Shown: positions 7,986-12,215 of the stretch, piece after piece
Position numbering within the stretch: the first letter of the stretch is position 1
Layout: the number at the start of each line of letters is the position of its first letter
DNA from: Psilocybe cubensis
Lineage: Eukaryota
DNA length: 64,000 nucleotides
Assembly: GCA_017499595.2 (NCBI GenBank)
Contig: CM038998.1
Span: 1,116,001 to 1,180,000, forward strand
Direction: 5' to 3'
Notes under the pieces: model-generated
What the model was told of the DNA's origin: nothing
The model's input: the letters and a program-made list of their open reading frames with translations, nothing else
Database searches by the model: none
Made by a program: the position numbers and the translations under genes

Positions 7986-8829
7986 ATATTACCGCATCAA
8001 TAAAAGCCAATTTTTGCATCGAAGTACTCTGAATTCAGTATTGTTTTTTTTTTTTGCCTCGTCGGTGATTGTACTATAGTGCTCAGGCGATTTGCACGTT
8101 CTTCCAAGATTTTTTCGCCAATTTAAAGTGCCATCTTCATATTAAAAAGCAGCTAAGCGCATGCCCCGAGGAACTGGAACTTAAACATATTGCCATGGAA
8201 GCGGCAAAATGTGAAGGCTTATTTGTCGATCGGGGATCCTCACTACGTTTCAATGGGTACTTACAGGCAGCCAATGTTGGCCACAAGTAAACTCTGAATT
8301 CTACGGATCGATGTCCAGGTCAGTTTCGGTAGACTTCACCGTCCGCGTTCAATCCATCGACTGGGTCGTTCTAATTAATCCTCATATCAATAATCAAGAC
8401 AGCCAACTGTGCAGCGGGTAGGGGGTGGCAGCAAATACGCATCAATACCCTCGGCGATACATATTATGCGTCCGGTACCCAACACAACACTCGGTCCTTA
8501 GTCCGTATGCATGCACATTGTCAGCATGCATTGTGTGTTCAAATCTCGAAACCATCGTAACGATGAATGTTTCACTTACGGGTTTAAATAAGCTTAGAGA
8601 GCTTAGATTTACTTTCAATACCAGAGTCACCCTTGCGCTATCCAGAATCAGAGATACTGATATTAGAACTAATATAATTCTGATTAGTCGGGAACAACTC
8701 AAAAATAGTACGGTATCACAATTCGCCTAGGGCCCCACAGTTGCGTTTCCAAACATCATCGGGTCTTGTTTCACGGATACGTTTAGACGGATGGTAGTAG
8801 ATGGTAGTAACACAAACTTTTAGATGGTG

Positions 8830-9533
8830 TCAAGTATCGCATAGCATTGTATCAATCTCTGGCCTGCTGAAATCACCACTTCGTCCGCCAGCTTTGTGAG
8901 TGACCATAATTTCACCGATAATCATTTCCTGCCCAGCCACAGCTTTCAGCATGTCCCAGACTGTCAACAGGCCTACAGACACAGATGTCAATGCCTCCAT
9001 TTCGACTCCAGTCTTGCCCTCGCATGCAACGGTCGCAGTACATAGAATGCTATACGTTACATCTTCGCCACTTCCTGATTTTCTTGTTGTAGTCTCTGGC
9101 TGTAGAACAACGCCAATTTTTGAAAGTGCGAGAGGATGGCAAAGCGGTATCAAAGATGAAGTTTGTTTTGCCCCCATAATCGCAGCCAGCTGGGCAACCG
9201 TTAGCACGTCACCCTTGTGCCTCGCTTTGGCGACGGCTCTAGATTCTGCGGATGAGGACGAAGAATCTTCCGTTGGGTAGGAGGCTGTGACTAATTCATA
9301 TGCCAGTTTCGTTATGTATATTCGACCAGAAGCTGTCGCAGTGCGCTTCGTGGGCTGTTTCTCGCCAACATCAACCATAGATGCACGACCACGTTCGTCG
9401 ATGTGGGTTAGTGATGGCGATGGTGATGATGAGGTGCTATAAACACGTAAACCTGACTTCTGGTGTCTGTGCACTGAACCTGAAGGTGAATGAACTAAAT
9501 GTAATGTTGGGTACATTGATTTCTTGAGGCGGC
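8830..9533 (-). CDS. MOCS1: Cyclic pyranopterin monophosphate synthase (MoaC/MOCS1B) domain, in frame behind the MoaA stop
   Basis: LTHIDERGRASMVDVGEK, KGDVLTVAQLAAIMGAKQTSSLIPLCHPL, GKTGVEMEALT, TVWDMLKAV, KAGGRSG are MoaC signatures. Confidence 0.95.
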
Positions 9534-9615
9534 CTGGTGATAGAAAGTGAATAAGAGTGTGCACATAGTGGAAATATGTAAGGCAATACACACATTGTTC
9601 ATGAAAGAAGAACAC

Positions 9616-11086
9616 TCAACCACCAATAAGTATCATCGGACGATTTGTGATGACATCAATGTCTTCCATGCCTGCGTGTTTTTCTTTCTTCCCAGACACT
9701 GAGCGTCCGATAGTTTCCAGAAGCTCTTGATCGGACGCTCCCGTGCGAAGTTTATCGCGGAGGGAGACTTCTGTCGCGTCGAATAGGCAAACCTACATTT
9801 ATGAGTACAAAACTTCGACACAAAACAAAAGAACGTACTTTTATTTGGCCATCCGCAGTTAGACGCAGACGATTGCAGGAACTGCAAAAATGATCTGACA
9901 TGCTTGAAATAAACCCAAAATGCCCTTTGTGGCCTGGTATCGACCATGACCTTGCCGTGTCGTTGAGTTCGTCTGGTGCGCGTTCCACATTCGGGTGCTT
10001 AGCCCGTATACGTTCCAACAATTCAGACGAAGGGACCATCTTCTTTTTGTCCCATTTATTGCCTGGAAACAGCTTGAACATCTCAGTTTCCGAAGGATCA
10101 AGAAAGGCGAACCTGTAAACGGCATAAATTCGATGAACCGCACTGAGATATTCTCAGTTTTTGTCATTTCTACGAAGTCAAGGACCTCTGAGTCGTTCAA
10201 ATCTTTGATGACCACGACATTAATCTTCACAGATGCGAGAGGGGATTCAAGAGCTACTTTGAGAGCTTTTAGAACCGCATCATGACCTCTTCGCCGAGTG
10301 ATGAGCTCAAATTTGAATGGATCTAAAGTATCGAGACTACAGTCCATCGGGGTAAGTTCCTGTGCCCATAGAGTATGAATCAAAAAGCAAACCTCAGGTT
10401 AAGATGACTCAGGCCATTTTCAACTAACTGGGGCAGGTGACGATGGAGAGCAAGGCCATTTGAAGTCATTCCAATGGATTTCAAGCCATATTTTCGCAAT
10501 GAATTCAAGTCACCTGCATTATTGTTCAATTTACAGCGGTTTGCCGAATACCAGATACACGCACCGATAATCTCTGCTATCCCTTTACGAATGGTTGGCT
10601 CTCCGCCGGTAAGCCTGATCTTAGTAACACCACTTTTGACAAAAAGTGTAGCCAGACGTATGATTTCTGCGTTGGTCAACAGTTTGCCATCAGGAGAGAG
10701 TTCTATGCCTTCGCTTGGCATGCAATAAAAGCCTGAAAAAGGTCGGTAACCTTTAAAAGCATAGAAGTAGTAGGAGTGACAAACATCGTAGGTTGCACCT
10801 CTCTGTCAGAGATATTCTCAGATAGTTATGCTGGCGATTGAATGTGTCTATCAAGTGCTTGTTTACAGGTGAAGCAAAGTCGATCTCGCGGATTCTGGCC
10901 TGGGCCACCGGATGAATGTGAGCAAAATTTGATCCTCGCAGTCAAAATGGTTTACCGCACCTGAGCACGACGCTGCAAGTTCAACGAAGTTGATGGCAAC
11001 TCAACTTGAGTTGCGATGCCTCTGGCCATCGAAAGAGGAAGCTTTGTCCATAAATTCGGAGTGATTTTGGTCGCAGGAAAAGTCAT
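9616..11086 (-). CDS. MOCS1: GTP 3',8-cyclase (MoaA/MOCS1A, radical SAM) with N-terminal mitochondrial presequence-like segment
   Basis: [19 protein letters not shown] (CxxxCxxC), [37 protein letters not shown], ends [12 protein letters not shown] (9618-9616); start [26 protein letters not shown]. Confidence 0.95.
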
Positions 11087-11370
11087 TGTTCAGCAAGAGA
11101 TATGATTTCATGGATTTATAAGAAACTGGACGCCATAAACTCCTATGATAACGGATATACGGTGATGGTCGGTGAGATGACTCCCAAAACACACTTGGTC
11201 GAACTTCGGTTAGTCTGAACCAGCAACTGAACAGCGGTCCGGTGCTGCCAGTCGCGTGACGGCTGTTACAGAAACGACGCGTCACCTCAATAGCATTGGC
11301 GGGCAAGACGCGTAATTCTCTACCACTTTCACTTTCTTCAGACCATTATTTCCCTTACGCATATTTCAAC
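11087..11370. promoter_or_regulatory. Short (~285 bp) divergent intergenic region shared by MOCS1 and PUP3; likely bidirectional promoter
   Basis: Head-to-head start codons at 11086 (-) and 11371 (+); contains CGCGTGAC/GACGCGTCAC-type elements (function inferred). Confidence 0.5.
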
Positions 11371-12215
11371 ATGGTGAGTATCCTAATGCTACTACCCTCA
11401 ACCGTTGTTGACTCTTTCTATAGTCGATCATGGATAACAACGGTGGCTCCGTGATAGCCATGGTAGGAAAGGACTGCGTAGCCATCGCCTCAGATTTGCG
11501 ATTGGGAAATCAAGCTCTCGGAATCTCGTCAAACTTTCAAAGGGTAAGCAAATGAATATATAAAACTGGTTTACTATAGAATAACATACTGTTTAGATAT
11601 TCCCTGTGACAGATCGAATCTTCCTTGGTCTTCCCGGTCTTGCAACAGATGTTGCAACAGTGTAAGGCGCTTTCAATTACCATGCCTTGAAATACCCATA
11701 CTAAAAGAAATTTGAAAATATAGGCATGAACGTCTACGTTACAGGCTCAATATGTATACAATTAAAGAAGAACGCGAAATCGAACCAGAAACTTTTGCCC
11801 ATCTGGTATCTTCAACCCTATATGAACATCGTTTTGGGCCCTATTTTGTCGAGCCCGTTATGGCCGGTATTTCGAAGACACCATCAGGCGGCGTGAAACC
11901 CTTCATTGCGGCGACTGATCTTATTGGATGTCTAAACTTTGCGAAGGACTTTGTCGTTGCAGGAACCGCGAGTTCGAAGCTGTACGGTGTGGCTGAAGGT
12001 CTCTGGGAGCCAGATTTGGAACCTGAGGATTTGTTCGAGACGATCTCGCAGACATTAATGAATGCCGTCGACCGTGATGCATTCTCCGGTTGGGGTTGCG
12101 TTGTGCATGTAATGTCAGTATGTCCACCCAATTTCATCTACAGTTACTAATTTCCGCCTTCTGCAGAACGAAAGACAGAGTAGTCACGCGTACGCTGAAA
12201 GGAAGGATGGATTAA
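11371..12215 (+). CDS. PUP3: 20S proteasome subunit beta-3
   Basis: M|SIMDNNGGSVIAMVGKDCVAIASDLRLG, LPGLATDV, RFGPYFVEPV, NAVDRDAFSGWG, RTLKGRMD*; first exon is ATG only. Confidence 0.96.

Follow-up and report, generated by a model that had tools for sequence, protein, structure and literature searches.

One MOCS1 gene of a mushroom very likely serves two enzymes through competing splice donors on either side of its MoaA stop codon

How can one gene supply two enzymes when the first should end freely at its stop codon and the second lies directly behind that stop in the same reading frame? This question is raised by a gene on the minus strand of a 64,000-nucleotide stretch of Psilocybe cubensis DNA (assembly GCA_017499595.2, contig CM038998.1, positions 1,116,001 to 1,180,000), which we call the window and whose numbering is used throughout. 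Its orthologs are nit-7 of Neurospora and human MOCS1, and this is the agaric member of the group. A first-pass annotation, made from the letters alone, had noted that MoaA ends with Gly-Gly-TGA and that MoaC follows in frame, and both points are confirmed: the last MoaA exon closes with GGT GGT (9624-9619) and then TGA (9618-9616), and the open frame that continues behind this stop (9615-8830) matches the Pfam MoaC family (PF01967) with an E value of 3.6e-44. A search of the organism's own genome returned only this one MoaC match. The Gly-Gly (GG) motif of MoaA is essential (PMC9026282). The answer that we consider very likely is that one gene, with one acceptor and competing donors that flank the MoaA stop, gives rise both to MoaA with a free Gly-Gly end and to a MoaA-linker-MoaC precursor that would probably be imported and cut later (Table 1).

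The whole gene is covered by one spliced transcript contig, and five of its seven splice joints are also present in a second sequencing run (X2). The Radical_SAM and Mob_synth_C Pfam matches each fall on single MoaA exons, and the cluster motifs of MoaA are CxxxCxxC at residue 77 and a C-terminal CxxCx13C at residue 311. Its N-terminal 40 residues include five R/K and one D/E. A Pfam match of exon 6 to PPP1R21_C (E 0.008) is below the cut-off and was taken as chance.

Table 1. Features of the gene in the window, with the basis on which each is given. The slash marks an exon-intron boundary.
Feature	Position	Strand	Basis
Spliced transcript contig, whole gene	8678..11150	-	Run X1 record 1, 8 exons, 2097 nt, 7 GT-AG joints
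Start codon ATG	11086	-	Opens 384-aa ORF
Presequence-like MoaA N-terminal extension	11012..11086	-	Composition; putative targeting role
MoaA/MOCS1A coding, 384 aa	9616..11086	-	Spliced contig joints
MoaA exons	11086-10961, 10899-10785, 10732-10565, 10513-10393, 10336-10113, 10062-9839, 9792-9616	-	Contig joints
Terminal GG motif, two GGT codons	9619..9624	-	Sequence; GG-stop in related loci
MoaA stop TGA	9616..9618	-	Retained in spliced contigs
Alternative candidate donor, first Gly codon, intron start 9623	9618..9624	-	Sequence
Putative fusion donor G/GTTGAGT, intron start 9620, contains stop	9612..9621	-	Conservation and duplex energy
Putative 87-nt stop-removing intron, giving 617-aa fusion	9534..9620	-	In-frame join; phase-1 join in relatives
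60-nt intron actually spliced	9534..9593	-	Joint 9532/9593 in X1 and X2, GT..AG ends; absent from X3 and X5
Linker, 40 residues, basic, Ser-rich, acid-free	9412..9533	-	Composition
In-frame linker ATG	9514..9516	-	39 nt behind stop in spliced mRNA; two out-of-frame ATGs precede
R-V-Y-S, putative R-2 type MPP site (cleavage ahead of Y, which is then trimmed)	9436..9447	-	Motif match
MoaC/MOCS1B domain, single exon, stop 8832-8830	8830..9411	-	Pfam PF01967

Four sequencing runs (X1, X2, X3 and X5) were aligned to the window, none of the five candidate runs being recorded as RNA. X1 and X2, both from the same study, show splicing; X3 and X5 are DNA and unspliced, with X3 nearly identical to the window and perhaps its source. 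All four were used as assembled contigs only. Both spliced runs join a donor at 9593 to an acceptor ending at 9534, and because this donor sits 22 nucleotides behind the TGA, the stop codon stays in the mRNA. The first-pass annotation had instead proposed a stop-removing intron of 87 or 90 nucleotides. Part of this proposal stands: a GT is present at 9620 and at 9623, either can be joined in frame to the CAG ending at 9534 with loss of the TGA, and that acceptor is the one used in the spliced contigs. Its donors do not appear, as neither splicing from 9620 or 9623 nor intron retention is found in the contigs of the two spliced runs of this one study. Because assembled contigs drop rare forms, these data establish the presence of the 9593 form without establishing the absence of the others, and the interval 9534-9593, which has no cover in the spliced contigs, was not counted as evidence against retention. 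The stop-keeping mRNA seen here is made by alternative donor choice and is bicistronic in form; it is not made by retention, the route that had been suggested for it.

The same contigs bear on whether MoaC is transcribed from its own promoter within the 3′ end of MoaA as a separate mRNA, an explanation to which we give next to no credence. Contigs cannot reveal transcript starts, which is a point in its favor, but contigs of X1 and X2 alike connect MoaA's last exon with the MoaC exon, with even depth across the two, 5′ RACE in N. crassa gave full-length forms only (PMC7232280), and the conserved fusion frame described below would be left unexplained. In the DNA run X3, an allele changes the in-frame TAT codon at 9588-9586, inside the junction intron, to TAA, and this change at 9586 also alters position +8 of the 9593 donor.

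Related loci allow the junction to be viewed more broadly. With a search pattern that stopped one base into the first Gly codon, 68 loci were recovered from metagenomes, and every one of them reads on as Gly-Gly-stop (60 TGA, five TAG and three TAA). MoaC lies downstream in 66, and the contigs of the other two end there. Removal of 16 duplicates left 53 distinct loci, the window included. Of these, 46 have GGT as their second Gly codon and seven have GGA, and because the seven compensate with GGT as their first Gly codon, all 53 keep a phase-1 GT in a Gly codon. When this GT was joined to the top-scoring acceptor, picked regardless of frame, an open MoaC fusion resulted in 40 of 48 loci (two loci lacking MoaC and three lacking an acceptor candidate were left out) and in 18 of the 19 with a single acceptor candidate, with intron lengths in all three phases. 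The score of 40/48 is strong only against a one-in-three null, since the candidate-weighted expectation is 35/48, and for the window the procedure took 9495 rather than the RNA-seen acceptor 9534; the test is therefore a rough one.

In four loci (L020, L064, L021 and L045), which are probably mRNA, no intron interrupts the MoaA frame. The junction intron is still present in L020 and L064, L045 keeps the stop, and L021 keeps the stop but lacks about 60 nucleotides, leaving MoaC out of frame; the L021 junction probably lies 15 nucleotides behind the stop.

These loci also weigh on readthrough of the TGA, which the first-pass annotation had offered as another way to make the fusion, with the unspliced interval and the 60-nucleotide intron both preserving the frame. 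Such preservation in both forms in the window would favor this idea, as would the use of TGA in 60 of the 68 loci. However, in only 12 of 48 loci do MoaC and the stop share a genomic frame, so that the in-frame interval here is incidental and readthrough becomes unlikely. In addition, the X3 allele places a TAA in the interval, MoaC is out of frame in the stop-keeping L021 transcript, and eight of the 68 stops are TAG or TAA. We consider readthrough highly improbable and have set it aside.

Fused proteins are common in relatives. The best 120 long homologs are all MoaA-MoaC fusions, and the named ones come from Agaricomycetes; the closest named protein, from Psilocybe cyanescens, matches at 71% over the linker and MoaC and at 91% over the last MoaA exon. 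Among 80 further matches to the last MoaA exon, 50 (many of them exon fragments) end exactly at the GG motif and 30 continue. A phase-1 Gly junction fits all 146 fused proteins that carry the anchor motif, most of which are gene models and so do not constitute proof. Continuous fused ORFs occur on contigs of 1.1-2.4 kb from several lineages (P0022, P0036, P0042, P0067, P0072, P0092, P0108, P0122-P0124, P0133, P0149 and P0214), and because members on long contigs (P0127 and P0128) are called as fragments, these short contigs, whose library type is not given, are probably spliced mRNA. One Suillus-like lineage provides both forms, the fused ORF P0108 and the stop-keeping transcript L021. Production from one gene of MoaA with a free Gly-Gly end together with a spliced fusion precursor appears well supported by conservation. 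Two protein models deserve mention for themselves. P0173, an 868-residue model, ends in the MoaA GG motif with about 480 other residues ahead and is possibly a merged gene model, and in P0001, the nearest model that has a name, about 18 residues behind the GG region look intron-like, so its junction seems mis-set.

Two Gly codons could hold the fusion donor, and we favor 9620, in the second, over 9623, in the first. We infer a fusion splice at 9620 because Gly-Gly-stop recurs at 68/68 loci, a GT in a Gly codon at 53/53, and fused ORFs are found on transcript-sized contigs; what counts against it is that its junction occurs in neither of the two spliced runs of this organism (one study, contigs). 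A second-Gly donor is allowed by 112 of the 146 fused proteins, and it is used by the fused ORF in both clusters in which that ORF differs from the genome model (P0122 vs P0121 and P0092 vs P0129).

The 9620 donor has an odd feature: because the TGA is embedded in it, the usual G at position +5 is impossible. Pairing with U1 was computed for the 5′ end of mammalian U1 as given in PMC4856993. The predicted duplex energy at 9620 is -2.6 kcal/mol in the canonical register, which ranks worst among the candidate donors, versus -7.3 kcal/mol with the +3 base bulged. Judged with the same mammalian U1 end, the bulged register is the more stable one at 41/41 G/GTTRAGT sites and at 0/101 constitutive donors, and GTTRAG itself occurs at none of these 101 donors of the same loci. 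A GT stands directly behind the stop in all 41 loci that combine GGT as second Gly codon with TGA or TAA, in three of five with GGT-TAG, and in none of the seven with GGA-TGA. The 41 loci are related but do not form one clade, since they fall into 18 lineages at 75% MoaC identity. This pattern suggests that U1 may read the 9620 donor with one base bulged, helped by the conserved GT behind the stop. We lean, if only slightly, toward the wider proposal that in Agaricomycetes the stop-containing donor G/GT-TRA-GT is read in this manner and sets the ratio of MoaA to MoaC, with the register determined by which stop is used (TGA/TAA or TAG). No U1 snRNA of the organism itself turned up: an Rfam RF00003 search came back blank, as did its control, and a 12-nucleotide U1 motif gave five matches against five control matches, none of which fit an RNA family.

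The same switch might operate with 9623 as the fusion donor, as is probable in N. crassa, and with the GT behind the stop as a further stop-keeping donor, in which case there would be no bulged U1 site. Canonical pairing is better at 9623 (-4.4 kcal/mol), 34 of the 146 fused proteins need a first-Gly donor, a donor probably also follows closely on the stop in N. crassa, and one clade of 10 loci has a fair donor, GTTAGC, at that place. Yet only 14 of the 53 distinct loci have a GT in the first Gly codon and 39 do not. The GT behind the stop, moreover, is followed by a +5 G in only 15/41 cases vs 70/101 for constitutive donors, and here it pairs at -0.2 kcal/mol while the contigs use 9593 instead. 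This arrangement is therefore an unlikely one, and 9620 is retained as the favored donor.

Other candidate donors in the window were rejected: 9615 (a frameshift behind the stop, with U1 pairing of -0.2 kcal/mol), 9641 (no U1 pairing) and 9654 (out of frame with acceptor 9534). Among related loci, the TAG stop of the Boletales-like L010, L021, L028, L047 and L058 places a canonical G at +5 of the second-Gly donor. Seven loci (L006, L013, L015, L027, L041, L043 and L061) read GGT GGA TGA, have no GT behind the stop, and have the donor shifted to the first Gly codon, the position deduced below for N. crassa. GC-type donors occur several times among the constitutive donors of conserved MoaA introns, for instance three times as GCCCGT at the position of intron 10112-10063.

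How MoaC would be freed from the fusion depends on the linker. Its earlier description as basic, Ser-rich and acid-free is accurate (six R/K, 11 S and no D/E among 40 residues), and the R-V-Y-S that had been pointed out is located at 9447-9436. In 105 of the best 120 proteins both anchors were present and the linker could be compared: net charge is at least +3 in 101 and at most one acidic residue is found in 88. The pattern R-x-[YFWL]-S lies within the last 25 linker residues of 55/105, compared with a mean of 7.7 and a maximum of 16 in 1000 shuffles, and the strict motif is absent from the other 50. For the site inside yeast Arg5,6, an R-2/aromatic consensus of MPP has been described (PMC8734313); the linker motif matches it and is plausibly an MPP site of this kind.

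Internal targeting by the linker, as the first-pass annotation had supposed, is the human route and is not the one we adopt. Because the N. crassa linker did not import NIT-7B without an N-terminal signal, the linker here is more likely to be a cleavage site only. The competing view, in which splicing is the same and the linker itself is the import signal, as reported for human MOCS1AB (10.1101/429183), could draw on the presequence-like linkers of 101/105 relatives, but the N. crassa fusion stayed cytosolic when it lacked its N-terminal signal (PMC7232280), and MoaA here has a basic N-terminal extension. We rate this view as improbable, and cleavage of a precursor imported by its N-terminus remains our preferred reading.

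A bicistronic mRNA could also be translated as such, with reinitiation at the linker ATG (9516) giving MoaC with a short presequence of its own. In the sole junction form seen, the stop is kept and the MoaC ORF is present in full, this ATG lies upstream of R-V-Y-S, linkers built from genomic loci contain Met in 29/40 (and the motif in 22/40), and reinitiation at trace level is reported in a human patient (PMC9607355). Nevertheless, two out-of-frame ATGs precede 9516, Leu stands at the corresponding position in the closest relative with a name, and the position of the ATG is not conserved in relatives, with Met in only 42/105 protein linkers and in 12 at least eight residues upstream of the motif. 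Met-started NIT-7B of N. crassa was cytosolic and did not complement (PMC7232280), and reinitiation leaves the conserved phase-1 donor unexplained. We regard it as very unlikely.

The mechanism that we propose would involve donor competition. One pre-mRNA with one 3′ acceptor (9534) would offer 5′ donors that flank the MoaA stop and compete. Use of donor 9593, which is seen here, or retention, which is seen in relatives only, would make the 384-residue MoaA with its free Gly-Gly end the first ORF. Use of the weak phase-1 donor in the second Gly codon (9620), which might pair with U1 with one base bulged by virtue of the GT behind the stop, would drop the stop and yield a 617-residue MoaA-linker-MoaC precursor. 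This precursor would probably be imported by its N-terminal presequence, and an MPP cut at R-V/Y-S would release MoaC of about 202 residues. In the fusion, no activity is expected of the MoaA half.

Much of this scheme resembles known systems, for which Probst et al. 2014 (N. crassa nit-7), Gray and Nicholls 2000 (human MOCS1) and Roca et al. 2012 (bulged 5′ splice sites) are reportedly the papers cited. In N. crassa, NIT-7A is made from unspliced mRNA and NIT-7AB after removal of nucleotides 1460-1696, whereas a third form, in which 1469-1696 are removed, is dispensable (PMC7232280). Growth requires NIT-7A as well as NIT-7AB, B is released after import, and B started at its own Met, or AB without the N-terminal signal, is cytosolic (PMC7232280). 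From the strain table of that paper, in which A spans nucleotides 1-1464, position 1460 would be phase 1 in the first Gly codon and 1469 just behind the stop. Both genes combine one locus with a stop-containing intron behind Gly-Gly and a phase-1 Gly donor that leads to an A-linker-B fusion, the latter two putative here, and with a second donor behind the stop, probable in N. crassa (variant 1469). They differ in that N. crassa has one 237-nucleotide intron and the gene here seven, that the fusion donor would lie in the first Gly codon there and in the second (G/GTTGAGT) here, and that the main A-coding form is unspliced there but is seen spliced 22 nucleotides behind the stop here. Release of B after mitochondrial import is reported for N. 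crassa and would be expected here.

Human MOCS1 contrasts a type I bicistronic mRNA with type II/III splicing to MOCS1AB, which has an internal signal and a predicted MPP site (10.1101/429183, PMC9607355, PMC9026282). It shares with the mushroom gene a spliced, stop-keeping bicistronic mRNA set against a stop-removing splice that is putative here, the requirement for a free Gly-Gly end, and a linker with a predicted MPP site. However, types II and III omit either the stretch of exon 9 that encodes GG or the entire exon, whereas the putative fusion here keeps both Gly residues, buried, and the human linker imports MOCS1B, whereas import here would be N-terminal. Yeast Arg5,6 likewise has a presequence-like stretch and an R-2/aromatic site between two enzymes (PMC8734313), but its precursor yields two active enzymes, unlike the precursor here with its putative cleavage and a MoaA half expected to be inactive. 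A bulge in the +2/+3 register is described for human 5′ splice sites (PMC4856993, PMC9311317), which also have an extra U after GU, a consensus shifted one base downstream and a more stable bulged register (PMC4856993). Those sites were demonstrated with suppressor U1 in human cells, whereas the fungal case is argued from conservation and energy, and the register shift here, unlike theirs, arises from an embedded stop codon. The literature that we searched, mostly without subscription papers, contained no basidiomycete report of the switch and none of bulged donors in MOCS1 or in fungi.

A one-gene, two-enzyme switch is already published for Neurospora and humans and the mushroom case extends it, so a specialist would not be surprised by the switch as such. 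The new-looking detail is the conserved, odd donor that contains a stop codon. If true, it would be a conserved and functional non-canonical U1 register in fungi that is dictated by stop-codon choice. With the G/GTTRAGT donor, bulged U1 pairing could be tested on a naturally occurring example in fungi, and the tuning of the ratio between MoaA and MoaC would become easy to approach. The gene models at NCBI usually give the fusion alone, in which MoaA activity is expected to be absent, or MoaA alone; because only one form is annotated, each model misses one needed product.

The region upstream of the gene has features of its own. A proteasome subunit gene (Pfam PF00227, presumably beta-3-like) lies head-to-head at 11427-12150 on the plus strand, about 340 bp from the MoaA start codon, which suggests a short bidirectional promoter common to both genes. 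Run X1 also has a contig over 11239-11300. The 5′ leader of the spliced contig contains out-of-frame ATGs at 11136 and 11111 (minus strand), which open a six-codon uORF and an ORF of 36 codons that overlaps with the MoaA start at 11086; initiation could be weakened or diverted by them. A second in-frame MoaA ATG is present at 11029.
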